NCBI GenBank assembly: GCA_003343885.1 | Contig: QAKH01000079.1 | Span: forward strand, 60,607-124,606 | Source of the DNA: Clostridiales bacterium | GTDB lineage: Bacteria > Bacillota > Clostridia > Oscillospirales > CAG-382 | Reading direction: 5' to 3' | DNA: 64,000 nucleotides | Shown here: piece after piece, positions 43,375-60,030 of the stretch | How the letters are laid out: each line of letters begins with the position of its first letter | Position numbering within the stretch: the first letter of the stretch is position 1 | Program-made: the position numbers and the translations under genes | Notes under the pieces: model-generated | Databases searched by the model: none | What the model was told of the DNA's origin: nothing | The model's input: only the letters and a program-made list of their open reading frames with translations

Positions 43375-43382
43375 TATATTTG
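43375..43382 (+). promoter_or_regulatory. Candidate -7 box (TATATTTG) upstream of the rSAM gene
   Basis: It fits TAnnTTTG and lies about 60 nt before the ATG at 43444, within a 300-nt AT-rich divergent intergenic region. The -33 element is weak (ATTG). Confidence 0.35.
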
Positions 43383-44778: not shown

Positions 44779-45996
44779 ATGAAACAGAAACTTACGCTTT
44801 CTCCCGATACATTTCTTTGGCGAAAAGGAACGGAAGGCTTGTTATACGAGTCGGCGCGAGAAACCATGTTCCATTTCAACGTAACGGATTCGATCAGAGA
44901 ATTATGCCGAGTATTCGAGGATTATGATAATTTGTATTCCGCATCGTTCGATCCGGAAACTCTCGATAATGATGCACGGTCATTCATCAATGAAATCACA
45001 ACCCGGGGATTCGGCCGGATTACATCTTCTGAAACTCCGATTATTTCTCTGCCGCCGATGCTCAATATTCAGCACGACATCAAACGGCTGAAGAAGGATC
45101 CGGAGCGTGAGATCGGAGAAAATGTTTTGGAATATCTGTCTTCTTTAACCATATACATCGGAGGTCTATGTTGTAACAAGTCTTATTTCAAACAGATTAT
45201 TTATCCGATCTGTTCGGAGGAGCATCTGAGCAGTGAAACGATTGTTCGATTCTTGGACAAAGTATGGACTCCGTCGCTGCAGAGAATCAATTTGGTCGTT
45301 TCGGATGTTACCGATCGAGAGATCATCCAGATGGAGCAACGTTTGAAGGCATATAAAGAACAAATCGTATTCTATGTTCTCTATGCGGGTTTACATGATA
45401 AAACAACTGCGCCATATACGCTCGCTAAAGCCGGATATAGGGTACGTTTCATCTGCGAACAGCCAGACAATGTGCCGAAGGCATTCGACATGGAAAAGCC
45501 GATGGAAAAAGAACAGCGGTTGTCGCTCCCGTTCGGATACGATTTAATCGTCCGGAACGACCGCGAATACAGAGAATGGAGTGAACTGGTGGAAAAACTT
45601 GAAGTGAAAGACTTTGCAATGGTTCCGGTATATGACGATAACAAGGAATTTTTCGACTGCAACGTATTCCTTTCCGAAGCGGACATTAAACAAATCCGAT
45701 TGTCCCGTCGCGAAATTTTCGCTCACCAGGCAGTCAATATCGAAGCATTCGGTAATTTGATAGTAATGCCTGACGGCCGGATTTATTCGGATGTAACGGC
45801 GCCGTCTCTCGGGACGATCGACGATTCGATATACGATCTAATCGTCCGTGAATTGCAAGAGAATTATGCATGGCGAAAAATTCGCGACTCCGAATCCTGC
45901 AAGAATTGCGTTTATCAGTGGTTATGTCCGTCGCCGTCGCCATATGAACGAGCCACCGGGAAAAAGACGGTTTGTACGTTCCGAGAAAACGGATGA
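44779..45996 (+). CDS. Pseudo-rSAM / SPASM-remnant protein (paralogue lacking CxxxCxxC)
   Basis: 405 aa directly after the maturase. No CxxxCxxC is present. The C-terminal CKNCVYQWLCPSP is a SPASM-like remnant. It matches my recollection of the pseudo-rSAM partner family of GG-Bacteroidales systems. Confidence 0.65.
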   Translation: MKQKLTLSPDTFLWRKGTEGLLYESARETMFHFNVTDSIRELCRVFEDYDNLYSASFDPETLDNDARSFINEITTRGFGRITSSETPIISLPPMLNIQHDIKRLKKDPEREIGENVLEYLSSLTIYIGGLCCNKSYFKQIIYPICSEEHLSSETIVRFLDKVWTPSLQRINLVVSDVTDREIIQMEQRLKAYKEQIVFYVLYAGLHDKTTAPYTLAKAGYRVRFICEQPDNVPKAFDMEKPMEKEQRLSLPFGYDLIVRNDREYREWSELVEKLEVKDFAMVPVYDDNKEFFDCNVFLSEADIKQIRLSRREIFAHQAVNIEAFGNLIVMPDGRIYSDVTAPSLGTIDDSIYDLIVRELQENYAWRKIRDSESCKNCVYQWLCPSPSPYERATGKKTVCTFRENG

Positions 45997-46003
45997 GTTT
46001 CAT

Positions 46004-46097
46004 GTTCGGGCTTGCCATCCGAATATGAAGAGCCACCCCGCGAGGAAGCAAAACCGAGTGCGACAGCCAATAAGTTTAACTAAAACACAGAAAGGCA
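46004..46097 (+). repeat. Precursor-upstream element, copy 1 (two hairpins plus 50-nt core at 46048..46097)
   Basis: Core gcaaaaccgagtgcgacagccaataagtttaactaaaacacagaaaggca. It ends 123 nt before the ATG at 46221 and starts 8 nt after the upstream stop. Confidence 0.85.
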
Positions 46098-46220
46098 TCA
46101 AGAGACGAAACAATTCTCCGGATTTCGGAATAGGATTTGGCGAACGACGGATACGGACACTCCGTCGCAGGACAAAAATCCGATAAAAATCTGTTGTATA
46201 AAACTTAAAACTCGAGAACC

Positions 46221-46472
46221 ATGAAATCGCTCAAGGTAAATCAGATCGAAAAGGCACGCCTTTCAAAAACGGAAATGGCTTACGTCACTGGAGGTGAAAG
46301 TTGTGGTTGTGCATGCCTGTATGCCGATTCGGGAGGGTCATCGACAGCGAGCAACAAGAATGCGAATGCAGCCAGCGGTTTGCATTCGCCCGGTATGCTT
46401 CACATCACAGGCTATATGAATGAAGATGGATCATGGACCCTGTGTGATAAGTGGGTACTTATAGCTAAGTAA
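46221..46472 (+). CDS. GG-leader peptide precursor A1 (25-aa leader, 58-aa core)
   Basis: MKSLKVNQIEKARLSKTEMAYVTGG | ESCGCACLYADSGGSS... The double-glycine leader is nearly identical to those of A2 and A3. Confidence 0.85.
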   Translation: MKSLKVNQIEKARLSKTEMAYVTGGESCGCACLYADSGGSSTASNKNANAASGLHSPGMLHITGYMNEDGSWTLCDKWVLIAK

Positions 46473-46500
46473 TCCATGGAATCTTAATAGATTGTATTTC

Positions 46501-46586
46501 AAACGCAAAATCAATTATATCTCATTATGCCCAAATGAATCCTTATCCCATCGGAGAGCATGATAAGGTTGATTGGTTTTGCGTTT
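46501..46586 (+). terminator. Nested hairpin structure just after precursor A1 (attenuator/stabiliser candidate)
   Basis: aaacgcaaaatcaat pairs with attggttttgcgttt (15 bp with one G-U). The inner pair is ccttatc/gataagg. No clear U-tract follows. Confidence 0.45.
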
Positions 46587-46611
46587 TGATCCCGTATAAA
46601 ATCATTCAGTT

Positions 46612-47799
46612 ATGAGCAAGTTCCTATACCCCCTGCTGCTCCTGCAATTCGTCGTGGTTTCCTGTTCGTCGCACGGACAGACGCCGCCGGCTGCCGACAA
46701 CACGAATTTGCGCATCGATCAGGACAGAATCATTACCCCCGTCGTAATCAACGCAACGGATACGCTCGAAATGCTGTTCGATACGGGATGCTTGGTCGGC
46801 TGCATGCTGCCGCAGTCGCTCGCCGAAAATTACGCCGACTCTCTGACCGTTACGCAGCCCGGAGCCGTCGTATCGCATATCGCGGTCAAGGATATATCGC
46901 TCGGCGGCCAATCGCTGAACGACAACAGGATTTACCATGTTCCCGACGAAGAGTTTGACGTTGTCGGGCCCGTCGACTTGCCATGTGTTATTGCTCCGGC
47001 GTATGCTACCGAAGAACGAATTTGGTGTTTCGATTTCGATAACCGCATGTTTTCCATTCGCGAGACGGACACCTTGCCCGAGAACGCCATTGTTTATCCA
47101 TTGCTATTTGCGAAGTATAAGGACCGGAAGATCGCTCCGTTCGTCAATATTCCGATGACCTTGTCTTACGGCGACCGCTCTTTGTCGACGGATTATGTCT
47201 ATCTGCTCGACACCGGCACGCCGTACGGATTCTGCATTACGGACCCTCCGGCAGAGCTGGAAGATTTCGTTTCGCGCATTCCCCATTGGAAAATCGAGGA
47301 TCGTTTTAGCGCGGAGATTCCCGACCGGCAGCATTTGGATTTCGAAGTCGACATCGATATGCCGCCCTTTGTCCTGCCGGACGTGCGCTGTGATTTCGAT
47401 ACGGGATTGAGAAGCTTTGCAGAAGAATTCAAGAACTTTCTTCCCGGTATCGGCAAACCGATCGTAGGCACGCTCGGCATGCGCATACTCAAGCATTTCA
47501 ATATGATCCTCGATTTCAGGAACGACCGGCTCATACTCACTCCGGCACAGCGTACCTATCCCTCCAAACCGGTGAACCGGACAGGGTTCTGGTGCGATTC
47601 GCAAGGGGTGGTAACGAGAATCCGCACGAACGATGCTGCCTACGGGCAAGGGCTTCGTCTCAAAGACACCGTTATGACCGTCGACGGCATCCGGTGGACC
47701 GACATCCCCGAGGAGAAGAGGGAAGATATATATTCTACGGAAGAGCGTACCGTCTGGGAAATCCGTTCAGCGGATGGAACCAAAAAGATAATCATCTGA
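46612..47799 (+). CDS. Lipoprotein with two retropepsin-like DTG motifs and a C-terminal PDZ-like domain
   Basis: Signal/lipobox LLLLQFVVVSC. The two motifs are LFDTGC and LLDTGTP. The C-terminal GLRLKDTVMTVDGIRW is PDZ-like. Confidence 0.6.
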   Translation: MSKFLYPLLLLQFVVVSCSSHGQTPPAADNTNLRIDQDRIITPVVINATDTLEMLFDTGCLVGCMLPQSLAENYADSLTVTQPGAVVSHIAVKDISLGGQSLNDNRIYHVPDEEFDVVGPVDLPCVIAPAYATEERIWCFDFDNRMFSIRETDTLPENAIVYPLLFAKYKDRKIAPFVNIPMTLSYGDRSLSTDYVYLLDTGTPYGFCITDPPAELEDFVSRIPHWKIEDRFSAEIPDRQHLDFEVDIDMPPFVLPDVRCDFDTGLRSFAEEFKNFLPGIGKPIVGTLGMRILKHFNMILDFRNDRLILTPAQRTYPSKPVNRTGFWCDSQGVVTRIRTNDAAYGQGLRLKDTVMTVDGIRWTDIPEEKREDIYSTEERTVWEIRSADGTKKIII

Positions 47800-47831
47800 A
47801 AACGGACTGCGGATAACCCGCCGGAGTTTCA

Positions 47832-47921
47832 TGCGGCTTTGCCAGCCCGACAAAAAACTTCCCGCGGGGAAACAAAACCGAGTGCGACAGCTCATAAGTT
47901 CAACTAAAACACAAAAAGGCA
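47832..47921 (+). repeat. Precursor-upstream element, copy 2 (core 47872..47921)
   Basis: Core acaaaaccgagtgcgacagctcataagttcaactaaaacacaaaaaggca. It ends 124 nt before the ATG at 48046. Confidence 0.85.
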
Positions 47922-48045
47922 GCAAGAGGTAATATAATTCTCCGGATTTCGGAGCAGGATTCGGAGAACAGCGGATCCGGATAACTCCGTCGCAAGGCAA
48001 AAATCCGATAAAAATCTGTTGTATAAAACCTAAAACACGAGAACC

Positions 48046-48291
48046 ATGAAATCGCTTAAAGTGAATCAGATCGAGAAAAACAACCTTTCGGAAAAGGAAA
48101 TGAGCAGCGTCAAAGGTGGAAATGTCTGCAATTGCGCCTGTTATTATCGAAATGTCGGCGGCTCCTCCATCGAGGCGAACGGACAGGCCAATTGGGCTGG
48201 AAATAAAAATTCGATTCATAAAACAGTCGACTCAGCCCTTATGATAGATGATGGCAATGGAGGTTGCCGTGATTTTTGGCGAACGAAATAA
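48046..48291 (+). CDS. GG-leader peptide precursor A2 (25-aa leader, 56-aa core)
   Basis: MKSLKVNQIEKNNLSEKEMSSVKGG | NVCNCACYYRNVGGSS... Confidence 0.85.
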   Translation: MKSLKVNQIEKNNLSEKEMSSVKGGNVCNCACYYRNVGGSSIEANGQANWAGNKNSIHKTVDSALMIDDGNGGCRDFWRTK

Positions 48292-48358
48292 TGAGACTTA
48301 TCAATAACTATATAAGCTATAGTATATTGGAGAGTTTACATTGAAGCGGACGATTATC

Positions 48359-49594
48359 ATGTTTCGGATACTCATTATTTTCATTCTGTTCCTCGCTTCG
48401 GCCTGCATCCGTCGGGACGAAGGAGCGCAGTCGCACGTTCCGGTATGCACCCTCGAACCCGCAGCTGCGAGATTCGAGTACGACATGATAGGACATCCGG
48501 TCATCGAAACGAAGTTGGATTCCGCTCATACGTGTAAGCTGATTTTCGATACGGGAAGTGCCGGAATGCTCGTCCTGGACAAGTGCTTTGCAGAAAAGAG
48601 CGGCCTGATCGACCGGTTCCGCCCTACGGAGACACTGAAGTCGGGATGGGATTTCAGGCGAGACATTCCCAGCATGACCGTGGAGCACCCCGTCTCGATA
48701 TCGATCGGGAATAGTCGGGTCTGCTATTCCGAATGTCGGATCGTGGACGGGCGCTCTTTGAACATGCTTGCGGCCGACGGCATTTTCTCCATTCCGCTCG
48801 AAGAGACCCGCACGTGGGAGCTCGACTGCGAAAACAAATGCCTCGCCGTATACGATTGGCCCGTTTTCTCGTTGCCGGGTATCTCCTTGCAGCTGGATGT
48901 CGTCGGGAACCAGTTCGTTATCCGGGATTTCCCGTTTCGGTTTCATTGCCGGAACGAATACGTGCGGCCACGGGTCGATTTGGTATTGGATACCGGAAGC
49001 CCCGCATCCCTCGTCTATCTGTATGCCGAGCCCGACAGTACGATGCGTGCGGTCCTGAACGACGAGACCACACGCAAATACGTCTGTCCTTCCAAGAACG
49101 GAGTCTTACCGACTTGCTATCGGCTGAATGAATATGGATTATTGAACCGCAAATTATGGATCGAGCACCGCGAACTGTTGCGTCCGTGGCGTATTTCGGG
49201 AGAGCGCGAGATGGTTGTGGCAGGCATGGACTTTTCGAAGTCGTTCAATCTGCGGTTCCATCCGGCCCGACACCGTATCGAACTGTTCCCCATCGCATAC
49301 GTCTCCCTGCAGGAGGATCAGAGCCGGCAGGAAGGGATGGCCGGATTCTGTTTCCGGGCTTTCCAAAGCAGGGAGGGGCACGCCGTAGTCGATTTCGTGA
49401 AGGAAGGATCGTATTGGCAGGATTTCGGTGTGGAAGAAGGGGATGTGATTCTCGATGTGGACGGTCGGCGGTTGTTCGACCTTCCCCGCTCTTATTTCGA
49501 CGAAACAGAATCCGAGCATTCGTTTACGATCGTTCGGGACCGGGATACGCTGTTCATCCGTTCCGGAACACCTCCGACCAGCGGAACCCCATGA
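48359..49594 (+). CDS. Paralogous double-DTG aspartic-protease-like lipoprotein with a PDZ-like C-terminus
   Basis: The ATG at 48359 (the track TTG is at 48341) gives MFRILIIFILFLASAC. The two motifs are IFDTGSAG and VLDTGSPAS. The C-terminal GVEEGDVILDVDGRRL is PDZ-like. Confidence 0.6.
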   Translation: MFRILIIFILFLASACIRRDEGAQSHVPVCTLEPAAARFEYDMIGHPVIETKLDSAHTCKLIFDTGSAGMLVLDKCFAEKSGLIDRFRPTETLKSGWDFRRDIPSMTVEHPVSISIGNSRVCYSECRIVDGRSLNMLAADGIFSIPLEETRTWELDCENKCLAVYDWPVFSLPGISLQLDVVGNQFVIRDFPFRFHCRNEYVRPRVDLVLDTGSPASLVYLYAEPDSTMRAVLNDETTRKYVCPSKNGVLPTCYRLNEYGLLNRKLWIEHRELLRPWRISGEREMVVAGMDFSKSFNLRFHPARHRIELFPIAYVSLQEDQSRQEGMAGFCFRAFQSREGHAVVDFVKEGSYWQDFGVEEGDVILDVDGRRLFDLPRSYFDETESEHSFTIVRDRDTLFIRSGTPPTSGTP

Positions 49595-49608
49595 CTTCCA
49601 TTCGTATC

Positions 49609-49702
49609 ATTCGGACTTGCCATCCGAATATGAAGAGCCACCCCGCGAGGAAGCAAAACCGAGTGCGACAGCTCATATGTTCAACTAAAACACAGAAAGG
49701 CA
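49609..49702 (+). repeat. Precursor-upstream element, copy 3 (core 49653..49702)
   Basis: Hairpin attcgga-cttgcca-tccgaat followed by core gcaaaaccgagtgcgacagctcatatgttcaactaaaacacagaaaggca. It ends 121 nt before the ATG at 49824. Confidence 0.85.
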
Positions 49703-49823
49703 GTGCAGAGATAGAGTTATTTTCCGGATTGACGGAATGTTACCCGGAAAACGGCAGATTGAATCGTTCTGACGAAAAACAAAAGTTTCAGTTGTGATGT
49801 ATAACCTGTAAAAAACGAAGATT

Positions 49824-50072
49824 ATGAAATCGCTCAAGGTAAATCAGATTGAAAAAAACAATCTTTCGGAAAAGGAGATGCAACACATAGCCGGGGGCAA
49901 ACCAGCAGGAATGTGTGGTTGCGGCTGTATGTATGAGGGCCATGGCGGGTCTTCATCCATGGACAACGGACTGGCAAATGCCGATACCGGAATTTGGACC
50001 GGGGATAAATTCACATGCATCCAGTCCGTAATCGTCGTAGCTAAAAGGAAGGACAATTTAACTACCGAATAG
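49824..50072 (+). CDS. GG-leader peptide precursor A3 (25-aa leader, 57-aa core)
   Basis: MKSLKVNQIEKNNLSEKEMQHIAGG | KPAGMCGCGCMYEGHGGSS... Confidence 0.85.
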   Translation: MKSLKVNQIEKNNLSEKEMQHIAGGKPAGMCGCGCMYEGHGGSSSMDNGLANADTGIWTGDKFTCIQSVIVVAKRKDNLTTE

Positions 50073-50081
50073 CTTCCATCC

Positions 50082-50112
50082 TTACCTGCGGCTCGGAATG
50101 GGCCGCAGGTAA
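50082..50112 (+). terminator. 11-bp hairpin just after precursor A3
   Basis: ttacctgcggc ... gccgcaggtaa, starting 10 nt after the stop. Confidence 0.5.
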
Positions 50113-50128
50113 ATAAAAACTTTTGCTT

Positions 50129-51064
50129 ATGAGAACTTTCTTGATCTTGCTGTCTGCACTCTCGATTTCGTGGTTGACGGCTTCGGCGCAGCATTATTCT
50201 CCGGAGGTCAGAGACCCGGGCGCAAAATATCCGATCGACACCTGCCGTCTCTGCGTAACCTACGACTTCGCCTATGTGGAAGATACGTTGGATATGAAGA
50301 TCCTGCACGACCGCACGCTGCTCGAAATAGGACCGAGCACGAGTCGCTATTACAGTCAGTACACCGATCGGATCGACTCAATGGCCTATCTTTATTATGT
50401 GGATATTCCGCCGACGGATATCGCCCGTCTGGAGAGTGGCATCCCATTGTGGGACTGGATGCAACCCGATGAACAGGCGTGGTATTGCGATGTATATACT
50501 TTCCCGAAGGAGAAGAAACGGATGGTCTCCACCCGCTTCCTAAAGGAAGAATACCGATACGACGAGCCGGTCGAAGCGCTGGACTGGCGGATCACGGAAC
50601 AGACGGATACGGTTGCGGGGTATCTCTGCCGCAAGGCGGTCGCGACCTTCCGCGGCAGAACATGGGAGGCATGGTTCGCGCCGGAGATTCCTCAGGCGCA
50701 CGGACCGTGGAAGCTGGGCGGTCTGCCCGGGCTGATTCTGAAAGCTGCCGACACGGAGGGGCTCTTCCGCTGGACGGCGATCGGACTGGAACAACCCGTC
50801 GGACGGATGATTCACGACTATGCGGACAAGGCGCTGAACGGTACGAACCGTCATGAGCTCATCATTCCGTCGCACAAGAAAGTCAAGTGTTCGCGTAAGG
50901 ACGTCGACCGCCTGTGGCGCAGGCAGTGGCTGGCCCCGTTGACGATGATGTTTCTGGACGGAGAGGAGCATATCATCTACGACATGAGTACGCAAAAGAC
51001 GGTCGAGATCGACATCAACTACATCCCCGAGGGCTATTATCCGAAACTGGAACTGGACATATGA
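50129..51064 (+). CDS. GLPGLI-family secreted protein
   Basis: Signal peptide MRTFLILLSALSISWLTASAQ. The family signature is ...GPWKLGGLPGLILKA... preceded by GYLCRKAVATFRGRTWEAWFAPEIP. Confidence 0.75.
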   Translation: MRTFLILLSALSISWLTASAQHYSPEVRDPGAKYPIDTCRLCVTYDFAYVEDTLDMKILHDRTLLEIGPSTSRYYSQYTDRIDSMAYLYYVDIPPTDIARLESGIPLWDWMQPDEQAWYCDVYTFPKEKKRMVSTRFLKEEYRYDEPVEALDWRITEQTDTVAGYLCRKAVATFRGRTWEAWFAPEIPQAHGPWKLGGLPGLILKAADTEGLFRWTAIGLEQPVGRMIHDYADKALNGTNRHELIIPSHKKVKCSRKDVDRLWRRQWLAPLTMMFLDGEEHIIYDMSTQKTVEIDINYIPEGYYPKLELDI

Positions 51065-51073
51065 ATTTTTCCG

Positions 51074-51168
51074 ATTCGGACTTGCCATCCGAATACGAAA
51101 AAGCCTTCCCGCGAGGAAGCAAAACCGAGTGCGACAGCTCATAAGTTCAACTAAAACGCAGAAAGGCA
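51074..51168 (+). repeat. Precursor-upstream element, copy 4 (core 51119..51168)
   Basis: Same attcgga-cttgcca-tccgaat hairpin, then a cttcc-cgcga-ggaag hairpin, then core gcaaaaccgagtgcgacagctcataagttcaactaaaacgcagaaaggca. It ends 122 nt before the ATG at 51291. Confidence 0.85.
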
Positions 51169-51290
51169 CTGCAAAGATAATAATCTTTCAGAATCATTCT
51201 TACGATTCAGAGAGCGGCAGTTCAAGGAATACTGTCGAAAAGCAAAAGTCCTAATCCAAATAGTATTAAAATCGACCAAAAACTACAATT

Positions 51291-51512
51291 ATGAAATCGA
51301 TGAAAGATTTTGCTGCACAGCAGCTCTCGAAAAAGCAGATGAACGATGTAAAAGGCGGCGCCTTCTGCCGAGCTTACAGCAAAGCGAGCGGACAAGAAAT
51401 CGCTCATGGTAATTTTCCTGGCCAGACAACTGCCGGTGCGACCGTAAAAATGGAGATCGAACTCAATCGGGCCGGCTGGCAACAGGGAAGCTATACGGTA
51501 AGCTGCGCATAG
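51291..51512 (+). CDS. GG-leader peptide precursor B1 (23-aa leader, 50-aa core)
   Basis: MKSMKDFAAQQLSKKQMNDVKGG | AFCRAYSK...SYTVSCA. Cys at core position 3 and at the penultimate position. Confidence 0.8.
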   Translation: MKSMKDFAAQQLSKKQMNDVKGGAFCRAYSKASGQEIAHGNFPGQTTAGATVKMEIELNRAGWQQGSYTVSCA

Positions 51513-51521
51513 TTCATAAAA

Positions 51522-51549
51522 AAGAGACAGGGGATATCCCCTGTCTCTT
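51522..51549 (+). terminator. 12-bp perfect hairpin just after precursor B1
   Basis: aagagacagggg-atat-cccctgtctctt, starting 10 nt after the stop. An A-run lies before it and no U-run follows on the + strand. Confidence 0.5.
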
Positions 51550-51581
51550 ACCTGCCTCCATCACCTTTAGAAACTGCCATT

Positions 51582-52889
51582 ATGAAACATCCACTTGTTT
51601 ATCTGCTTTTTTTGTTTTCGACAATCAACGTCTGCGGGCAGCATCCGTCTTCCGTCCGCATATCGGGTTCGGTCGCCGACAGTCTCGATGCCGAGGGCCG
51701 CACAGCTTATCTGTTCACCTATTTCGACAATCAGGCGGCCTTCATCGATTCCTGCCGGATTTGCGGCGGGCGTTTCGTGTTGGAGGGGCGGATTCCGTTC
51801 GACGAAGTGGCGGCCGAGGTTCTCATCGAACGCGTACCGCTCTCTTCCGGCTCGATCGTCGTCCGAAGCGGCGACCGGATAGACTTCGCATTCGCGCCGC
51901 TGGGGCGGATGGGCCGTCCGGAGGTATCGGGGTCCGAATCCCAAGAGGAGCTGTGCAGCGTCCTCGGGGCTCCGGTCGTAACACTGCGCAAACGGTTGCA
52001 AGCCGAATCTCTGAATTTGTCGCCCGACGACGACCGCCGTGCAGCACTCGCAACACGTATCGACTCCTGCTTCCGCGCCGAAGGGCTGTTGTGGCGGGAG
52101 CTGCTGCGGACCACCCGAAGCGGGTTCAATGCGGTATATGCCTGCCTCAATCTTTTGCCGGATCTGTCGGAGAGCGAACAGACCGAGACATACGCATATA
52201 TCCGTGCAAAATTCCCCGACAATGCGAATCTTTCGATGCTTACGGGAACGACTCCTTCCGGTGAACCCATACCCGCGATGACGCCCGAGAGCCGCGAGGC
52301 ATTCAACCGTTATGCCTGCATCGTAGGCGATCCGCTCCCTTACCCGGACCCGGTCGAAGAAGAAGCCGGATTCGAACTCACGATAGCCCCTCCGGGTTCC
52401 GCGATTTCGGACGCGGACAACCCCACGGATGCAGACGAAGACAAACCGGCGATCCCGTATCGCTGCGGGGATACCGTCGTCAGCTTCAGTCTGCCCGACA
52501 GAGAGGGCAAGGAAACGTCGTGGCGCAGCCTGCAAACGCCTTACGTGCTGATCGATTTCTGGGCCTCGTGGTGCCTTCCGTGCCGCGAGGAGATGCCGGG
52601 GCTGCTGGCTGCGGCCCGCGATTACGAAAGAACGCTTGCGGTATACGCCGTATCCATCGACGAGAACCTGAACCGCTGGAAGCAGGCCGTAGAGGCTGAC
52701 GGGAGCGGCACGGCGCTGACCCATGTAATCCTGCGCAAGGACGATCCGGACTACGACCGTCTGTTCCGAATGTTCGGTATCGAGACCATCCCGCACAACT
52801 TCCTGCTGGATGCCGACGGGAAGATCGTCGCCGTCGATCTGCGCGGCGATGCGCTGCGCTCGAAGCTCGAAGAGCTGCAACGGGAATAA
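51582..52889 (+). CDS. TlpA/AhpC-like thioredoxin-fold thiol:disulfide oxidoreductase (secreted)
   Basis: Signal peptide present. The active site is FWASWCLPCREEMP (CxxC). The N-terminal beta-rich domain is typical of Bacteroidetes TlpA-like proteins. Confidence 0.8.
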   Translation: MKHPLVYLLFLFSTINVCGQHPSSVRISGSVADSLDAEGRTAYLFTYFDNQAAFIDSCRICGGRFVLEGRIPFDEVAAEVLIERVPLSSGSIVVRSGDRIDFAFAPLGRMGRPEVSGSESQEELCSVLGAPVVTLRKRLQAESLNLSPDDDRRAALATRIDSCFRAEGLLWRELLRTTRSGFNAVYACLNLLPDLSESEQTETYAYIRAKFPDNANLSMLTGTTPSGEPIPAMTPESREAFNRYACIVGDPLPYPDPVEEEAGFELTIAPPGSAISDADNPTDADEDKPAIPYRCGDTVVSFSLPDREGKETSWRSLQTPYVLIDFWASWCLPCREEMPGLLAAARDYERTLAVYAVSIDENLNRWKQAVEADGSGTALTHVILRKDDPDYDRLFRMFGIETIPHNFLLDADGKIVAVDLRGDALRSKLEELQRE

Positions 52890-52958
52890 CGTTTCGGGAA
52901 ACGCTGCCGAGGTAAAAACTCGCACCGAAACAATATTCCAAGAACCAATATAATGTTG

Positions 52959-53058
52959 AATCCGGTTTTGCCGGCCTGATTCGACGAAAAAGCCCTCCCC
53001 TGGTGGGAACAAAACCGATTGCGACAGCTCATAAGTTCAACTAAAACGCAGAAAGGCA
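52959..53058 (+). repeat. Precursor-upstream element, copy 5 (core 53009..53058)
   Basis: Core acaaaaccgattgcgacagctcataagttcaactaaaacgcagaaaggca. It ends 123 nt before the ATG at 53182. Confidence 0.85.
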
Positions 53059-53181
53059 TAAGAAAATGGAATTCTTTTCCGGATCATCGGGATATGAATC
53101 GGGAAACGGCAGTTCAGGACGCCTGTCGAGATGCAAAAGTCCGGACCGAAACAGAATTCAAAATCGACAAAAACTACGACT

Positions 53182-53394
53182 ATGAAAACGAACATGAAAA
53201 ATTTTGCAGCACAGCAACTGACGAAAAAACAGATGAACGAAGCCAAGGGCGGATGGCGCTGTCTTGTTGTCACCAAATGGGGCGAAGGCGATAGCCCGAA
53301 CGAAGGCTATTGGATCGATGTACCTGGTAATAACGCCAACGAGGCTGCAAACAATATCAAACGCCCGGCAGATGCGATTGGCATTGTTTGCTAA
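53182..53394 (+). CDS. GG-leader peptide precursor B2 (24-aa leader, 46-aa core)
   Basis: MKTNMKNFAAQQLTKKQMNEAKGG | WRCLVVTK...AIGIVC. The start was chosen by homology to B1/B3 and by the constant 123-nt distance from the upstream core. The track ORF starts 51 nt earlier. Confidence 0.8.
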   Translation: MKTNMKNFAAQQLTKKQMNEAKGGWRCLVVTKWGEGDSPNEGYWIDVPGNNANEAANNIKRPADAIGIVC

Positions 53395-53406
53395 ATAGAA
53401 CTCGGG

Positions 53407-53439
53407 GAGTTGTTCGTCGAATTTTTTGACGAACAACTC
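53407..53439 (+). terminator. 12-bp hairpin just after precursor B2
   Basis: gagttgttcgtc-gaatttttt-gacgaacaactc. Confidence 0.5.
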
Positions 53440-53476
53440 TTCCTGACAAGCCCGATGACAATTTCAAGCAAGTTCG

Positions 53477-54373
53477 ATGACAAAATTCACTTATATAATT
53501 ACCTTGTTGTCATGCCTTTCGGCTTCGGCTCAGCGTATCGTTCCGCTCTCCGAAATGAAACGCACCATGCCGGTCTATTCAGGTACTTATATCCCGAATT
53601 TCGAGAGTTTTTATTCTACTGCCGAGCGGGAGGAGATCGATGATATCGCCCTGCGTGTCATCTACGACCTCACCGTTCGGATCGATACGCTGGTGCGCCA
53701 TGACAGAATCGTTGCCGAAACGGGGAGCCGCTACACAAGTTTCTACAGTCTGTACCTTCGGGAACTATCAAAGAACCATACCGACCGGAACCGAAGAACT
53801 TCTTATGAGTGGATGGACTCGTGCAGCGTACAATATTCCGCGGCACTTTACGTCGATCTCCGCCGCCGGATACTCGAAGAATGCGTGTTGTTGCCCAACA
53901 TCGATAATCTGTTCCATACCTATGATGAACCGCTGCCGGCAATCGAATGGGAACTTGACGACGCTGTTTGCGGGATTCTGGGATACCGCTGCATGAAGGC
54001 TCGGTGTTCATTCCGGGGGCGGGAATGGAGTGTTTGGTATGCCCCGGATCTTCCTGTAATTGCCGGATTCTGGAAATTCCACGGTTTGCCGGGGATGGTT
54101 TTGGCCGCCAAAGACGCTTCCGGAGAGTACAGCTTCAGGGCTATCGGCATCGAGAAGCCCGCAGAACCGATGCTTCGTTACAAGGTGCCCTCCCGCAAGA
54201 TGTCGCGCGAGCGGGTGCAAAAGGCCGCTCGCACTGTCTACAACAATCCGATCGACTCGTTCTTTGCCGAGACGGGACAAAACTATTTCGTGACGCTTCA
54301 GGATGGCCAACCTCGGCTCATTACCCATGATCAATGCAGTCCGATTCCCTATAATCCGCTTGAGCTGGAGTAA
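53477..54373 (+). CDS. GLPGLI-family secreted protein
   Basis: Signal peptide MTKFTYIITLLSCLSASAQ. The signature is GYRCMKARCSFRGREWSVWYAPDLPVIAGFWKFHGLPGMVLAA. Confidence 0.75.
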   Translation: MTKFTYIITLLSCLSASAQRIVPLSEMKRTMPVYSGTYIPNFESFYSTAEREEIDDIALRVIYDLTVRIDTLVRHDRIVAETGSRYTSFYSLYLRELSKNHTDRNRRTSYEWMDSCSVQYSAALYVDLRRRILEECVLLPNIDNLFHTYDEPLPAIEWELDDAVCGILGYRCMKARCSFRGREWSVWYAPDLPVIAGFWKFHGLPGMVLAAKDASGEYSFRAIGIEKPAEPMLRYKVPSRKMSRERVQKAARTVYNNPIDSFFAETGQNYFVTLQDGQPRLITHDQCSPIPYNPLELE

Positions 54374-54422
54374 AAATATACTTGTTAAGCATTTGCCCCC
54401 CCCAAAAAAATCCACCTTTGCC

Positions 54423-57074
54423 ATGCGTACACTCCCGATACTTTTTGTTGCCTTGCTGCTCCTCGGAACCGCCGAAAATCTCCGGGCTCAGGAGCGAATA
54501 ATCATCAGCGGTACACTCCGCGATGCGGCGACGTCGCGTCCGGTGGAGAGTGCGAACGTGCTGTTGCAGGACACGGCCCGGCGTGCCGTGTACAATTATG
54601 CCATCACGGGCGACGACGGCGTCTACCGGCTCGAATATCGGGGCGATGCCGACTCGCTGGCGGTGGCGGTTACGGGATTCAACATCCATGAAGAGGTGCG
54701 TTTCGTCGCGGCACGGACGCAGCGGGTGGATTTCGCAGTCAGGGAAAACCCGACCGAAATTCGCGAAGTGATAGTCAGGGCTCCGGCCGTTACGCGCCGT
54801 CGGGATACGCTGACCTACACGGTGGCCAAATATGCCGACGTGACGGACCGCTCGATCGGGGACGTGCTGCGGAAGATGCCGGGCATCGAGGTGGCGAAGT
54901 CGGGCGAGGTCAAATACAACGGCAAGGCGATCAACAAATTCTACATCGAGGGTCTGGACATGCTCGAAGGGCGCTACGGCATCGCGACGAACAACGTGCG
55001 GGCACAGGACATCGCCTCGGTCGAGGTCTACGAGAACCACCAGCCGATCAAGGCGCTCAAGGACCTCGTCGCCTCGAACCAAGCGGCCCTGAATCTCAAG
55101 CTCAAGAAAGAGGCCAGGGGGACGTGGAACTCCACGCTCCAACTGGGCGCGGGCTACAAGCCGTGGATGTGGAACGCCGAGGCGACGGCGATGTACTTCG
55201 GCCGCAATTTCCAGACGATTGACACCTACAAGACCAACAACACGGGCGACGACGTCTCGCGCGAATTGACGAGTTTCTACGACGGTCTGGACGCCACCTC
55301 GTCGCTCTTGGGCATACACCGTCCGACCGAGCCTTCGCTCGACAAGGAACGGTACCTCGACAACGAGATCCATACCGTCTCGACGAACGCCATCGTCAAA
55401 TTGCGCAAGGATCTCGAACTGACGGCCAACGCCCATTACATCCACGATTTCCAGACCTCGGAGGGCGGGTCCATAACAACCTACTACCTGCCCGATGCCG
55501 TACCGCTCGTGATCGAGGAACAGACCTTTGCCGACCGCCGCACCGACCGCACGGAGGTGAACCTGCAGCTGCGCTCGAACACCGAGCGACACTACCTTCA
55601 GGAGAAGCTGACCTTCGGCGGTCAGTGGGACACCGACTACGGGCGGGTAGTGAACGACGGCGAGCGGGTCGACCAGCGCTTCCGGCTTCCGAAGATCACG
55701 CTGCGGAACCTCTTCACCGGCGTGCGGCGCTGGAGCCGCTGGGCGGTGAACTTCCGCTCGGAGACCGACTACACGACGCAACCGACGTCGCTGCGCATCC
55801 GCCCGATGCTCTACCCGGAAGTCTTCGACGCCCCGGCGGATTATCCCGATGCGCTCCAGACGCTCGACAGCCGGCGCTTCCGCACCCGTAACTCGGCCTT
55901 TACCTCCTATATCGTGGGGCGGTGGAATTTCACGCTCAATGCGGCGCTCAACGCGCAGGCGGAGCGTATGGAATCGGCACTCTCGGCCATGAACGCCGCG
56001 GGCGCAACCCTCCCGGCGCCCGACACCCTGCGCAACGACATCTACTGGCGGCGTCTGGACTTCGTCGCGGGGCCGAGCGTCGGCTACCATATCGGCGACC
56101 GCTTCTCGGCGACCCTCTATGTGCCGCTGGACTTCATGTCGCTGCGTACCGAAGACCGCAATCTCGGCCGGACCGTTACGGACAACCGCCTGCTCATCAC
56201 CCCATCGCTGTCGCTGCAGTCGAACCTCACCTACAACCTCAAGTTCTCGGCCCGGGCATCGTACAACGAGCTGATCGGCGGACTGTACGACACTTACAGC
56301 GGCTACATCCTCTCCGACTACCGGATGATCGCCAGCAAGGAGGGCGACATCAGCCGCACGCGCATGCAGAACTATACGGCGTCGCTCACCTACGGCAATG
56401 CCATCCGCGCACTGTTCGGTTCGATCGACGCATCCTACTATCGCTCCGAGCGCAACCTTATCTACGGCACGACATACGAAGGGTCGTTGAGCCGCATCGA
56501 GGCCATTGCGATGGACAACAGCTCGGACGGCTTCAGCGTCAGCGGCAAGATCAGCAAGCGTTTCGACGGCATCTCGACGACGGCGAACCTCTCGGGAGGG
56601 TTCTCGCGCTCGTGGAGCGAGGTGCTGCGGCAGGGGGTGCTGATGCCGACCCGCTACGACATGGCCTCGGCCGGGCTGGGCTTCAATACGCAGTTCACGA
56701 ATGCCGTGCGGATGGATTATACGGCGGAATACCGACGCAGCATGAGCCGGATCGACGGTGCGGCGCTCGATCCGATCGACGTGCTGCGGCAGGATGTCGC
56801 GGTGAACTTCATCATCCGCAAGCGTTGGATCTGCCGCCTCGGAGGCGAACACTATTACAATGCCGCAATCGGCGGGACGGACCGGCACATGTTTTTCCTC
56901 GACGCCTCGCTCACATGGAAAACCGAGCGCATGGAGTACGGCATCGAAGCCCGGAACCTGCTGGACTGCGGTGCGTTCCGCTCTGCTTTCCAGTCCGATA
57001 TTACGGATTACGTATATTCCTACCGTCTGCGACCTGCATCGGTGATGTTCACGATCAAGTTCAGTTTGAGATAA
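54423..57074 (+). CDS. TonB-dependent-receptor-like outer-membrane barrel with a carboxypeptidase-regulatory-like N-domain
   Basis: The Met at 54423 gives a signal peptide (MRTLPILFVALLLLGTAENLRAQ). An IISGTLRD...DGVYRLEY Ig-like domain follows. A plug-like segment is present (SIGDVLRKMPGIEV...KFYIEGLDM). The long remainder has an alternating beta-pattern and ends in an aromatic-containing terminal strand (VMFTIKFSLR). Confidence 0.7.
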   Translation: MRTLPILFVALLLLGTAENLRAQERIIISGTLRDAATSRPVESANVLLQDTARRAVYNYAITGDDGVYRLEYRGDADSLAVAVTGFNIHEEVRFVAARTQRVDFAVRENPTEIREVIVRAPAVTRRRDTLTYTVAKYADVTDRSIGDVLRKMPGIEVAKSGEVKYNGKAINKFYIEGLDMLEGRYGIATNNVRAQDIASVEVYENHQPIKALKDLVASNQAALNLKLKKEARGTWNSTLQLGAGYKPWMWNAEATAMYFGRNFQTIDTYKTNNTGDDVSRELTSFYDGLDATSSLLGIHRPTEPSLDKERYLDNEIHTVSTNAIVKLRKDLELTANAHYIHDFQTSEGGSITTYYLPDAVPLVIEEQTFADRRTDRTEVNLQLRSNTERHYLQEKLTFGGQWDTDYGRVVNDGERVDQRFRLPKITLRNLFTGVRRWSRWAVNFRSETDYTTQPTSLRIRPMLYPEVFDAPADYPDALQTLDSRRFRTRNSAFTSYIVGRWNFTLNAALNAQAERMESALSAMNAAGATLPAPDTLRNDIYWRRLDFVAGPSVGYHIGDRFSATLYVPLDFMSLRTEDRNLGRTVTDNRLLITPSLSLQSNLTYNLKFSARASYNELIGGLYDTYSGYILSDYRMIASKEGDISRTRMQNYTASLTYGNAIRALFGSIDASYYRSERNLIYGTTYEGSLSRIEAIAMDNSSDGFSVSGKISKRFDGISTTANLSGGFSRSWSEVLRQGVLMPTRYDMASAGLGFNTQFTNAVRMDYTAEYRRSMSRIDGAALDPIDVLRQDVAVNFIIRKRWICRLGGEHYYNAAIGGTDRHMFFLDASLTWKTERMEYGIEARNLLDCGAFRSAFQSDITDYVYSYRLRPASVMFTIKFSLR

Positions 57075-57084
57075 GCGATATAAA

Positions 57085-58629
57085 ATGAATATGAATCGTA
57101 CCATACCGTCTTTGCTGCATCTTTTTCTGCGAAAGCTGTGCATGCGCATCGACCTGCTTCGGATTCGGGAGGCGTATGCCGACCATCCTCTGCCGCGCAG
57201 CATCCGGTCGCTCAGCGACACGCTGGATGAGTTGCATGTACCCAACATGGTATGCCGACTGGAGTTCGGGCAGCTCTTCGAGATCGAGGGTCCGTTTGTC
57301 GTCAAGGCAGGAGAGGAGGAATATCCTTTCTTTCTGGTAGAATCGCTCGACCGCGAGCGGCAGGTGATCGGTCTGCGCACGGTTGCGGGCCGGCGTCTCG
57401 AAGTTCCGTTCGATAGCTTCCGCGCACTATGGGACGGCACGGTGCTCTTGGCTGAAAGAGGCGAAGAGACGAAAGAGACCTCCGTACCGGTATATTGGAT
57501 CAGGCAGGGGTTGGCGTTTCTCGACCGGTCATGGGGCTATTGGCTCGTCGGGCTGTGTGCCGTGCTGCCGTCGGTCATCGCGCTGCGTTCGCCCGACCTT
57601 GCGGATTCCCGTTTCTTAGTAAAAACGGCGGGCGTCGTCGTTTCGCTCGTGGCCATCGTCAAAGCCTCGTTCGACCCGCATCTTGTGCAGCGGTTCTGCC
57701 GTCTCGGGAAACATTCGGATTGCAATGCGGTTTTCCGTTCGGCCGGGGCGAAGCTCTTCGGATGGATCTCGCTCGGCGAATTGTCGTTGACTTATTTTGT
57801 CGCATCGCTCGTATGGGGCGTATTCGTAGCGACGAATCCCGCGTCTGTATTCCTCGGGCTCGACATATTGGCATTGCCGTTCGTCGGCTATTCGCTGATT
57901 TGGCAAATCCGCCGGAGACAGTGGTGTACGCTGTGTCTTGCGATCGATGCCATCCTACTGACCGATTTCGGGGCGGAATTGCTTCTTCAGAATACTGCGA
58001 CAGCAGCCAGTCGGCCGTTCCTGCTTTTCGACTGGCTGACTTTCGGTGTGTGTTTCGCTATCGCAATGCTGGCTATACGGCGCATCGTCGTGACGGTAGA
58101 AGTCGCGGCGAAATATCCCCGCGAAAAGTATGCACGAGAGCGTTTGTTGTGCGACCCGGACCTCTTTTGGCAGTTGCTCGCCCGTCAGAACGAGGAGCCG
58201 GTTCACAGCGATGCCGCGTCTCCGACAAGCAATTTCGTCGAGGCCGAACATACCATAACGGTCGTAATGAATCCTTCTTGCCCGAAATGCGCCCGGGTCC
58301 ACCGGGCATTCCGTGGATTGGAAGATTATCGTATCGACTTGATATTTATCGTGAACGAAGGAGACAAGAGTTCCTTCGATGCGGCAGTGCGGATGATTTC
58401 ATCGGGGATTGTGAACGAATGGCCCCGAACCGACCGGATCATCGGCGAATGGTTCGACCGGAGAGTATTGCCGGATTGGCTCGGAATACATCCGTTAGCG
58501 GAGGCGGATTTACGGGAGCAGATGGAATACTGCCGCAAGATCGGCATTACGGGAACTCCGACGGTACTTATAGACAACCGACGTTTGCCGGACGTGTATG
58601 ACGTCGAAGATTTGAAAATATTATTATGA
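57085..58629 (+). CDS. Three-part fusion: C39-like (non-catalytic) N-domain, VKOR membrane domain and thioredoxin/DsbA-like domain
   Basis: The N-domain PFVVKAGEEEYPFFLVESLDRE...FRALWDGTVLLAE resembles the C39 fold but lacks the Cys/His motifs. The VKOR loop Cys pair is CRLGKHSDC and the active-site pair is CTLC, within 4-5 TM helices. The C-terminus has NPSCPKC (CxxC). Confidence 0.7.
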   Translation: MNMNRTIPSLLHLFLRKLCMRIDLLRIREAYADHPLPRSIRSLSDTLDELHVPNMVCRLEFGQLFEIEGPFVVKAGEEEYPFFLVESLDRERQVIGLRTVAGRRLEVPFDSFRALWDGTVLLAERGEETKETSVPVYWIRQGLAFLDRSWGYWLVGLCAVLPSVIALRSPDLADSRFLVKTAGVVVSLVAIVKASFDPHLVQRFCRLGKHSDCNAVFRSAGAKLFGWISLGELSLTYFVASLVWGVFVATNPASVFLGLDILALPFVGYSLIWQIRRRQWCTLCLAIDAILLTDFGAELLLQNTATAASRPFLLFDWLTFGVCFAIAMLAIRRIVVTVEVAAKYPREKYARERLLCDPDLFWQLLARQNEEPVHSDAASPTSNFVEAEHTITVVMNPSCPKCARVHRAFRGLEDYRIDLIFIVNEGDKSSFDAAVRMISSGIVNEWPRTDRIIGEWFDRRVLPDWLGIHPLAEADLREQMEYCRKIGITGTPTVLIDNRRLPDVYDVEDLKILL

Positions 58630-58645
58630 CAGAGGTCTTATCATG

Positions 58646-58744
58646 TCCCGAAGTCCTGCCCGCTCCGGGATATGAAAAACCTTCCCGCGAAAAAGAAAAA
58701 CCGAGTGTGACAGCTCATAAGTTCAACTAAAATGCAGAAAGGCA
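58646..58744 (+). repeat. Precursor-upstream element, copy 6 (core 58695..58744)
   Basis: Core gaaaaaccgagtgtgacagctcataagttcaactaaaatgcagaaaggca. It ends 121 nt before the ATG at 58866. Confidence 0.85.
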
Positions 58745-58865
58745 CCGCAAAAGTAACATTATTTTCCGGATTAACGGAATGTTATCCGGGAAACGACGGT
58801 TATAGGACATCCGTCGAAACGAAAAAGTCTGGAAACTTTTTGTTTCATACTCAAAAACTACAATT

Positions 58866-59084
58866 ATGAGAACCATGAAAAATTTTGCTGCACAGCAGCT
58901 CTCGATGCAGCAGATGATGCAAATCCTCGGAGGAAAGTATCAAGTCAGTGTTTATGCAGCAGATGGACGTTTCCTCAATCGTATTACCGTTGACGGTGTG
59001 AGCAGTTCCCGCGAAGCTGCAGAATTGGTGCTTTCTCTCTATGGGCCGGGACATTATGCGATTGCCGGTCGTATAGTAGAATAG
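58866..59084 (+). CDS. GG-leader peptide precursor B3 (23-aa leader, 49-aa Cys-free core)
   Basis: MRTMKNFAAQQLSMQQMMQILGG | KYQVSVYAADGRF...AIAGRIVE. Confidence 0.8.
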   Translation: MRTMKNFAAQQLSMQQMMQILGGKYQVSVYAADGRFLNRITVDGVSSSREAAELVLSLYGPGHYAIAGRIVE

Positions 59085-59094
59085 TTCGTATCAA

Positions 59095-59129
59095 GGTTTA
59101 AGGCAACTTTTCATTGGTTGCCTTAAACC
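59095..59129 (+). terminator. 13-bp hairpin just after precursor B3
   Basis: ggtttaaggcaac-ttttcattg-gttgccttaaacc. Confidence 0.5.
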
Positions 59130-59157
59130 GATTTGCTCTTGTTCAATATCTATTCCA

Positions 59158-60030
59158 ATGAAACAGTTTATCTTAATCGTATTCTTAATCCATGCGGGAC
59201 TCTCATCTGCCCAAGACCGGTTTTTCTATCTCGGGCAGCCGTATATCTACAAGGATTCAGTGTTGCTCGATCAAAGTCGGTTGAATCTGATCTATCGGCA
59301 CGAATTCCGTGTCGACACATCCGCTTCGCCGATGTGGAGTAATGTGAAGATGCAGGTCGGACGGAAGGTCGTCAAGCAGACCGACCTGCATGTCTATTTT
59401 ACGAATCTATGGCGTAAAATCTCGGAGGAGACTCCCGGCATCGTGCCGGATCGAGAGCAGGCGGAGTTGATATCGAACGGGAATTGCAATCATCCATATT
59501 TTGCAGAAATGACGATGTTCCCATCCGAGAACGCACTACGGATTACGTGCTGCAATTACCTTCTGGGAAGCCACTCCGGTCCGTTTGTCTATGACGAATC
59601 CATCCCGGAGATGGAATGGCAACTGCTCGACGGTGCAGACAGCGTGGCCGGTTATGCGTGCAAAATCGCCCAGACCCACTTTCGGGGAAGGGTTTGGAAA
59701 GCGTGGTATACGCTACAAATTCCTATCCCTACAGGTCCGTGGAAACTACACGGATTGCCGGGAATCATTCTACGCGCTGTCGATCAAACAGGAACCTACT
59801 CTTTTGAGTGTATCGGAATCGAAACTGACCCGCAGTCGATATACGAGTATGTCCCGATGAGGTCGACGGCCGTAACGCGCACTCAATATCTGCGCTACGA
59901 GCGCAGGTATCATGAAGACCCGCAAAGCGTGCGGGGCGATGCTGCCGATATTTTCAAACTGGGACAAGACGGTGTAACGAATATCGATACCGATTGGCAA
60001 ATCCCGTATTATCCGATAGAATTTGAATAA
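59158..60030 (+). CDS. GLPGLI-family secreted protein
   Basis: Signal peptide MKQFILIVFLIHAGLSSAQ. The signature is GYACKIAQTHFRGRVWKAWYTLQIPIPTGPWKLHGLPGIILRA. Confidence 0.75.
   Translation: MKQFILIVFLIHAGLSSAQDRFFYLGQPYIYKDSVLLDQSRLNLIYRHEFRVDTSASPMWSNVKMQVGRKVVKQTDLHVYFTNLWRKISEETPGIVPDREQAELISNGNCNHPYFAEMTMFPSENALRITCCNYLLGSHSGPFVYDESIPEMEWQLLDGADSVAGYACKIAQTHFRGRVWKAWYTLQIPIPTGPWKLHGLPGIILRAVDQTGTYSFECIGIETDPQSIYEYVPMRSTAVTRTQYLRYERRYHEDPQSVRGDAADIFKLGQDGVTNIDTDWQIPYYPIEFE

Follow-up and report, generated by a model that had tools for sequence, protein, structure and literature searches.

Short RNAs transcribed from the strand opposite to the operons that they regulate have been described in Bacteroides, in which the cis-antisense RNA DonS of polysaccharide utilisation loci is reported to repress its locus (Cao et al. 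2016, as related by Ryan et al. 2020, PMC7366714). Antisense RNAs of B. thetaiotaomicron that are related to DonS are anti-correlated with their susC genes, and pairs resembling type I toxin-antitoxin systems have been noted in the same species (PMC7366714). Here we analyse a repeated element in a 64,000-nucleotide (nt) stretch of contig QAKH01000079.1 (hereafter the window), in which a 50-nt core flanked by small hairpins lies upstream of each of six precursor genes of a cluster for peptides that are ribosomally synthesized and then post-translationally modified (RiPPs). We propose that the core, the hairpin 5' of it (H2) and the A-run preceding that hairpin make up a minus-strand small RNA gene of ~71 nt in every cassette, antisense to operon read-through, a reading of the sequence that we hold with about as much doubt as conviction. 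The ~120-nt spacer between core and precursor is certainly a plus-strand RNA, the 5' leader of the precursor mRNA, with two hairpins followed by an A-rich stretch.

The element compares with DonS in phylum and in its predicted promoter type, and both would be short RNAs opposite the operon strand, located at the head of the regulated gene and belonging to a family repeated at many loci. The two have no sequence similarity, and the target is susC in one case and would be a RiPP precursor leader in the other; unlike DonS, the element occurs in six copies within one operon, and its small RNA is a prediction from sequence. With these differences, a DonS-type antisense RNA appears to be the closest functional analogue in the phylum. 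For a role in processing, the closest analogue may instead be GadY of E. coli, a cis-antisense small RNA encoded between gadX and gadW that reportedly directs cleavage of the polycistronic mRNA. Both GadY and the proposed RNA are antisense and intergenic within an operon, and in both a long duplex could split the transcript into stable pieces. GadY, however, overlaps a 3' untranslated region in a proteobacterium and works with Hfq and RNase III, whereas cleavage at our element is a proposal only. To our knowledge, Bacteroidetes lack Hfq.

Two further kinds of system share parts of this layout. The type I toxin-antitoxin loci tisB/istR-1, shoB/ohsC and zorO/orzO likewise combine a small peptide gene, a long structured 5' leader and a divergent upstream small RNA gene of ~70 nt, but the genes downstream of our element encode GG-leader RiPP precursors, accompanied by a maturase and a C39 exporter, and not short hydrophobic toxins. 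We rejected a type I toxin-antitoxin system for this locus since five of the six downstream open reading frames match TIGR04149 (three above cutoff) and the sixth has a GG leader. A separate complementary patch between the small RNA and the precursor start-codon region was not found. In lantibiotic clusters a hairpin or attenuator follows the structural gene and a dedicated promoter precedes the precursor. Here too a hairpin follows each precursor, hairpins also precede it, and no dedicated precursor promoter is visible; with hairpins on both sides, a precursor transcript that is short and stable could be carved out of a longer operon. We know of no antisense RNA gene described in lantibiotic-type RiPP operons, and we rate the present element as a structured leader combined with a proposed cis-antisense small RNA, the pair recurring in each cassette of one RiPP operon.

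A repeat made of two adjacent units

Five copies of the core, at 47872, 49653, 51119, 53009 and 58695, match over 50 nt with 0-3 mismatches and no indels, where shuffled sequence is expected to give none. A sequence-only reading of the window had counted six copies with at most three mismatches; the remaining copy, at 46048, is genuine (nhmmer E=1.5e-22) and has four. The same reading had placed the core end 121-124 nt before each precursor ATG, and we measured 123, 124, 121, 122, 123 and 121 nt for copies 1 to 6, taking ATG 53182 and not the in-frame upstream ATG 53131 as the start of precursor 5. The two hairpins that it saw 5' of the core (H1 and H2) are both present, their stems varying among copies and their positions constant, and the single hairpin that it saw in the spacer proved to be two conserved ones (H3 and H4). 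It did not recognise the element as a named motif. The Rfam 15 covariance models gave no match on either strand anywhere in the window at gathering score, and at E<=5 over 45900-59200 there were chance-level matches only, none of them on the element.

The repeat consists of two adjacent, separable units, the spacer leader on the plus strand and the core with H2, which reads better on the minus strand. For the repeat as a whole, the earlier reading had offered either a promoter for an alternative sigma factor or activator or a 5' leader RNA; the leader RNA holds for the ~120-nt spacer and is not supported for the core.

Terminator- and promoter-like features on the minus strand

Read on the minus strand, H2 is terminator-like. 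The proposed small RNA of copy 4 would cover 51098-51168, from an exact core (51119-51168) into a CUUCC-UCGCG-GGAAG hairpin followed by GC-UUUUU. In copy 2 (47851-47921, core 47872-47921) the hairpin is UUCCC-CGC-GGGAA, then UUUUUU, and in copy 5 (52987-53058, core 53009-53058) it is UUCCC-ACCA-GGGGA, then GGC-UUUUU. The hairpin of copy 1 (46027-46097, core 46048-46097) has a degenerate U tail; copy 3 covers 49632-49702 (core 49653-49702). In copy 6 (58674-58744, core 58695-58744) H2 reads CUUUU-UCGCG-GGAAG and pairs on the minus strand only, its two G:U pairs being two C:A mismatches on the plus strand. Pairing is maintained through different stems (CUUCC/GGAAG, UCCCA/UGGGA, UUUCCU/AGGAAA, AUCCUC/GAGGGU, CUUCUU/AGGAAG), and a hairpin-finder run, in which a few of the picked hairpins include the U run itself, counted 72 G:U against 10 A:C among the non-Watson-Crick pairs of the minus strand. 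In 44 of 51 variants H2 is more stable as a minus-strand fold, and the 7 nt that follow the stem include at least 4 T in 67 of the 68 distinct copies. A minus-strand terminator scan picked the hairpin in copy 2 (47873-47857), copy 4 (51119-51105) and copy 5 (53009-52996 and 53009-52995). H2 and its U tail thus have the makeup of an intrinsic (Rho-independent) terminator, with a short stem of 5-6 base pairs (bp).

At the other end of the core stands a promoter-like sequence. The Bacteroidetes promoter motif is TAnnTTTG, with its centre at -7 and mostly accompanied by TTTG near -33, an element that is not found throughout the phylum (PMC7366714). We scored this sigma-ABfr box at its six fixed positions and at one fixed minus-strand offset, and found it perfect in 21 of 68 copies, matching at five of six positions in 20 and poor in 27. 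Variation within the box falls at the two free motif positions (TATC, TACT, TATT). Within the window the box is perfect in copy 4 (TATCTTTG, 51172-51179, minus strand), its G lying 4 nt before the first conserved base, and in copy 6 at the same offset (TACTTTTG, 58748-58755, minus strand); copy 3 matches at five of six positions (TATCTCTG, 49706-49713, minus strand) and copy 1 is poor (46101-46108, minus strand). The most divergent copies have it too, perfectly in loci L008 and L061 and at five of six positions in L062, as does the copy in L004 that lies 5' of a non-precursor gene. Conservation sets in 4 nt after the G of the box, where +1 is expected for a motif centred at -7, so that the first conserved base is the predicted +1; predicted start and terminator together would make the conserved block a start-to-terminator unit of ~71 nt.

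No TAnnTTTG occurs at a conserved plus-strand position between -120 and the ATG in the 87 distinct copies that we collected (see below), in line with the earlier reading, which could find no canonical promoter in the leaders; in the whole window the full sigma-ABfr pattern occurs twice, both times outside the leaders. By inspection the core also holds no plus-strand pattern resembling sigma-54 (GG-N10-GC) or obviously resembling an extracytoplasmic function (ECF) sigma factor (AAC...CGT), and we dropped both candidates. A second minus-strand site, GAnnTTTG, lies 75 nt further right in most copies, the first T of the motif never being present. It overlaps a conserved plus-strand CAAA(A/G)(G/A)TCC after H4, at core+124 to core+136 (e.g. 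51243-51252), and may act as a further, weak antisense promoter, perhaps in place of the first box, or be no more than this A-rich plus-strand motif.

The body between these two features also favours the minus strand. In a 22-pair model of it, 92.8% of cells pair on the minus strand and 69.4% on the plus, and at pairs with a Watson-Crick consensus 112 variants are G:U and 50 are A:C. Copies 4 and 6, L008 and L061 have minus-strand folds with z from -3.5 to -4.1 and plus-strand folds with z about 0. Copy 4 folds to -26.8 kcal/mol (z=-3.7; plus strand z=-0.7), copy 6 has z=-3.5 (plus strand -0.3) and copy 1 z=-2.1 (plus strand 0.0). On the plus strand the core with H2 folds no better than shuffles, with z from -0.7 to +0.8. 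A plus-strand core hairpin GAGT...GCTC was considered and set aside, being broken in copies 1 and 5. A rod fold with a long closing stem was likewise given up as a universal feature, since it is confined to the main subfamily (copy 5 has none, z=+0.2); for this reason we rely on the local hairpin with its U tail.

A minus-strand small protein (MPFCVLVELMSCRTRFCFLAG...) was rejected: its codon positions show no bias, its start codon varies and no stop is conserved. Entropy in the minus-strand reading frame (MPFCVLVELMSC...) is 0.48, 0.42 and 0.45 by codon position, and the start codon among the 68 copies is ATG in 47, GTG in 10, CTG in 9 and another codon in 2. Pairing in trans between the small RNA and the precursor start region was also discarded, as duplex energies equal those of shuffles (mean z=-0.08), and the core has no match of at least 12 nt elsewhere in the window, where 10-mers occur as often as chance predicts. 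The element has, in short, a two-module anatomy with strand-specific hairpins, terminator- and promoter-like features and no coding signal.

A structured plus-strand leader

The spacer is assigned to the plus strand on the strength of compensatory changes and of G:U pairs that only this strand allows. Across 57 distinct sequences the base of H3 and H4 are 94.6% paired, 9 of 13 pairs having changed on both sides, and the covariation score of 0.216 (0.154 in shuffles) was reached by none of 500 shuffles. H4 contains a consensus G:U that is possible on the plus strand only and a switch between A:U and G:C (33 against 18 sequences), and for H3 the plus-strand fold is the better one in 52 variants, against 12. 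All six leaders of the window carry H3 and H4 on the plus strand: 46098-46220 for precursor 1 (H3 ~46114-46144 and H4 46145-46167, then A-rich CAAAAATCC), 47922-48045 for precursor 2, 49703-49823 for precursor 3 (H3 UUUUCCGG...CCGGAAAA), 51169-51290 for precursor 4 (H3 ~51185-51214, H4 51215-51237), 53059-53181 for precursor 5 and 58745-58865 for precursor 6 (H3 58762-58793). These hairpins are simple and do not pair with the start region, and we saw no ligand pocket or expression platform in the spacer and no plus-strand terminator after H3/H4.

H1, the outermost hairpin, is clearest in copy 4 (51075-51093, TTCGGA-CTTGCCA-TCCGAA), with approximate equivalents at 46005-46023, 47835-47847, 49610-49628, 52958-52982 and 58646-58670 in copies 1, 2, 3, 5 and 6. 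Its stem covaries, changing completely among copies while the CTTGCC-type loop stays constant, and its non-Watson-Crick pairs (75 G:U against 84 A:C) favour neither strand. The loop UGCC has its complement, GGCA, in the core 3' end; two loci with a CGCC loop have GGCG at that place, and two other loci do not fit.

How the two units may act together

In the proposed mechanism, the -7 box TAnnTTTG just past the plus-strand 3' edge of the core would direct transcription to start at the last core base and run leftwards through the core, stopping at H2, whose minus-strand hairpin has a U tail after it. The operon is probably read through from the promoter 5' of the radical S-adenosylmethionine (rSAM) maturase gene, because its genes are co-directional, gaps at core-less precursors are small and a single canonical promoter stands at its head. 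In a read-through operon the small RNA would be perfectly complementary to the transcript just 5' of H3, and the two could form a duplex of ~70 bp. Cleavage of the duplex just upstream of H3 would leave a precursor mRNA bracketed by H3/H4 and the hairpin 3' of the precursor; alternatively, the duplex may repress the transcript, mark it for decay or interfere with read-through. Small RNA and leader together may set the amount of peptide. Synthesis of the small RNA, its pairing with the read-through transcript and the effect of that pairing are inferred from sequence. It is a more doubtful proposal that the antisense RNA cuts out or silences each precursor message and so gives cassette-by-cassette dosage control of a hypervariable set of peptides, the near-invariant core allowing any copy to act in trans on any cassette and serving in addition as homology for shuffling.

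Distribution and modularity

An exact-pattern scan of species-representative genomes returned only four contigs, all from Alistipes metagenome-assembled genomes (MAGs), which marks the element as restricted to one lineage. With a looser pattern we obtained 66 stretches from metagenome contigs, human gut being the label of nearly all of them, and these combined with the other loci gave the 87 distinct copies, from Alistipes MAGs and human-gut contigs, in which the layout seen in the window recurs, with position and orientation the same in almost all. The distance from core end to precursor ATG is mostly 118-129 nt among them, and in 83 of 87 a GG-leader peptide gene lies 3' of the core, the core peptides being very diverse. 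The plasmid and phage collections gave no match to the element.

The earlier reading had made its case depend in part on orthologous loci, and these divide. Where the rSAM protein is 84% or 76% identical the core is present and ~90% identical while the spacers have diverged; at 67%, 64% and 55% rSAM identity the core is absent. Present at 76-84% and absent farther out, the element is under purifying selection yet confined to an Alistipes-centred lineage.

The two units also occur apart. Among precursor-like genes in the fetched loci, 79 of 92 have a core and 13 of 92 do not, in a sample biased by the fact that most loci were fetched via the core. Several of the core-less genes retain the downstream half of the spacer (H3 and H4, or H4 alone). 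A leader without a core is seen in L017, L045, L058 and L033, at L005:16775 and at the distant locus L079, where H3 and H4 stand with the A-rich tail and no core. Conversely, L004 has a core without a leader, 5' of a receptor-like non-precursor gene and followed by an unrelated spacer. Leader without core and core without leader make the modules separable. Core-less precursors of the same clusters start 20-60 nt after the upstream gene (some at ~20 nt), so read-through is the default and a dedicated promoter is not required. In L005 (20725-21060) a core is followed by a precursor pseudogene with an in-frame TAG right after ...KKQMN, and the copy at ~6457 of L001 has an 8-nt deletion in the 3' part of the core. 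Mosaic and truncated copies in L022, L075 and L001 suggest recombination within the core.

Weighing the explanations

Several observations weigh against an antisense small RNA. A good -7 box is missing from 27 of 68 copies, among them copies 1, 2 and 5 of the window, and in the copies inspected no -33 TTTG stands 19-21 nt upstream of where the box lies. Covariation is weak in the body (0.177, shuffles 0.166, and 5 of 500 shuffles reach the score), the long closing stem is the best fold in the main subfamily only, and z is about 0 in copies 2 and 5 and in L062, L071 and L001. Conservation is equal at paired and unpaired positions; an expectation that loops of the minus-strand model would vary more than stems failed (p=0.41). 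Because the copies share ancestry, cell counts overstate the number of independent events. A cis-antisense RNA, moreover, does not need 50 near-invariant nt: conservation of the whole core is more than cis pairing requires and points to a partner in trans, a protein or an RNA, and no trans target was found in the window or at the precursor start sites. Finally, the constant orientation and position 5' of precursors are equally expected of a promoter.

A promoter or operator on the plus strand, used by an alternative sigma factor or activator encoded elsewhere, is the main rival, and we think it unlikely. It predicts a strong start site for each precursor just 5' of H3, the minus-strand hairpin and U tail then serving only to insulate the upstream gene from divergent transcription. 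The conserved block has the size of a promoter, ends 16-20 nt before the first leader hairpin and keeps its orientation at 118-129 nt from the ATG. As no canonical plus-strand promoter is present, one of another kind is conceivable; Bacteroides has a second promoter class (PM2) that is non-canonical, and RiPP precursors usually need more transcript than their enzymes. Conservation, however, runs continuously over 50 nt where two boxes with a free spacer would be expected, and inspection revealed no sigma-54 pattern and, apart from GTTNAAC, no dyad symmetry for a dimeric regulator. The cluster harbours neither a sigma factor gene nor an activator gene, core-less precursors that belong to the same clusters evidently owe their expression to read-through, and a promoter on the plus strand leaves unexplained both a minus-strand -7 box that varies at its n positions and the onset of conservation at the +1 of that box. 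Somewhat less probable, in our view, is a core that acts within the plus-strand RNA, as a single-stranded landing site between H2 and H3 for an RNA-binding protein or ribonuclease in processing or stability, with no antisense RNA at all. The plus-strand core is indeed A/C-rich and unstructured (z about 0), is flanked by hairpins and precedes a leader that is itself plus-strand RNA; the strong hairpins 3' of the precursors would suit a processed, stabilised mini-transcript, and loops and stems of the minus-strand model are conserved alike, as if primary sequence were read. Yet H2 is broken on the plus strand by C:A in several subfamilies and paired on the minus, and a landing site would leave the minus-strand U tail and -7 box unaccounted for, together with the surplus of G:U over A:C variants (112:50).

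The remaining two explanations place the core in DNA. A core that is mainly a recombination substrate for swapping, duplicating or deleting cassettes, by homologous or site-specific means, would account for L022_1442, a mosaic that joins a copy-4-type upstream flank to a copy-5-type leader and hence has its breakpoint inside the core, and for L075_3750, in which similarity ends exactly at the core 5' edge. Cassette number and order vary among genomes, and the cluster lies on or adjoins mobile DNA. We nevertheless hold this role very unlikely: no recombinase was recognised in the window cluster or in the called genes of the related loci inspected, there are no integron-like inverted-repeat sites and nothing that qualifies as attC, any conserved sequence can be expected to recombine as a side effect, and the terminator, the -7 box and conservation between species would go unexplained. 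The core might also be left over from cassette duplication, without a function and homogenised by gene conversion; a simple duplication remnant was the outcome foreseen in the earlier reading should no function emerge. Six tandem cassettes in one locus, and mosaic copies that point to conversion, might suggest such a remnant. It seems extremely improbable, as the core is still ~90% identical between species at 76-84% rSAM identity while the spacer has diverged, the edges of conservation are sharp and the hairpins are maintained by compensatory change.

The surrounding RiPP cluster

All cluster genes lie on the plus strand. A canonical -7 box (TATATTTG), read from the sequence at ~43375-43382 on the plus strand, stands ~60 nt 5' of the rSAM maturase gene (TIGR04148, 43444-44766; 527.9 bits, cutoff 300), which is followed by the gene of a pseudo-rSAM partner (TIGR04150, 44779-45996; 277.5 bits, cutoff 250). 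Precursors 1 (46221-46472), 2 (48046-48291) and 3 (49824-50072) pass NCBIfam TIGR04149 with 33.8-45.8 bits (cutoff 25); precursor 4 (51291-51512) falls just under the cutoff, precursor 5 (53182-53394) matches weakly, and precursor 6 (58866-59084) does not match the model and has the MK..FAAQQL...GG leader in common with the others. A maturase, a pseudo-rSAM partner and GG-leader precursors together identify a RiPP system of the TIGR04148/04149/04150 type. Interleaved accessory genes encode GLPGLI/Porph_ging proteins, a thioredoxin-like lipoprotein, a TonB-receptor-like protein and a VKOR-thioredoxin fusion, and the last gene of the cluster encodes a C39-peptidase ABC exporter (60801-63077). 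Paralogous secreted-looking proteins of 395 and 417 amino acids, without a Pfam match, are encoded 3' of precursors 1 and 2 (46612-47799 and 48341-49594).

Every precursor is followed by a strong hairpin of 12-22 bp (z -3.8 to -6.2), at 46499-46589, 48292-48340, 50082-50112, 51522-51549, 53405-53445 and 59095-59129 for precursors 1 to 6. None of these six has a clean U tail on the plus strand, and the one at 51522-51549 is followed by such a tail when read on the minus strand; precursor transcripts may be stabilised at their 3' ends, or attenuated, by these hairpins.

Upstream of the cluster, genes that by eye encode an XRE-type helix-turn-helix (HTH)/S24-like repressor (40116-40754, plus strand) and a TetR-like protein (40913-41623, minus strand), both without a Pfam match, have counterparts adjoining the cluster in L005-L007 (212- and 221-amino-acid genes), and their products are candidate regulators of the operon promoter at ~43375. 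A few kb 5' of the cluster (31528-37706) lie a Toprim primase-like gene, a split DnaE-like polymerase gene and an RNase T-like exonuclease gene, and in L008 (1-9329) conjugative-transposon genes (TraG, relaxase, MobC) adjoin the cluster, which may travel on mobile DNA.

Implications

Gut Bacteroidales commonly carry RiPP clusters of the TIGR04148/49/50 type. We found no report on their regulation, and a paper on the mining of clusters with pseudo-rSAM genes describes no upstream element. For scans of sequence in general, the locus suggests that a conserved block with sharp edges, found upstream of a gene, may itself be a gene of the opposite strand and not a promoter. If the proposed reading is true, the element would add a new small RNA family, without a match in Rfam, and a new leader motif supported by covariation, both linked to peptide genes with core peptides that are hypervariable from one human gut sample to another. 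Mutation of the -7 box or of the core would then offer a handle for switching on clusters of this family that look silent.

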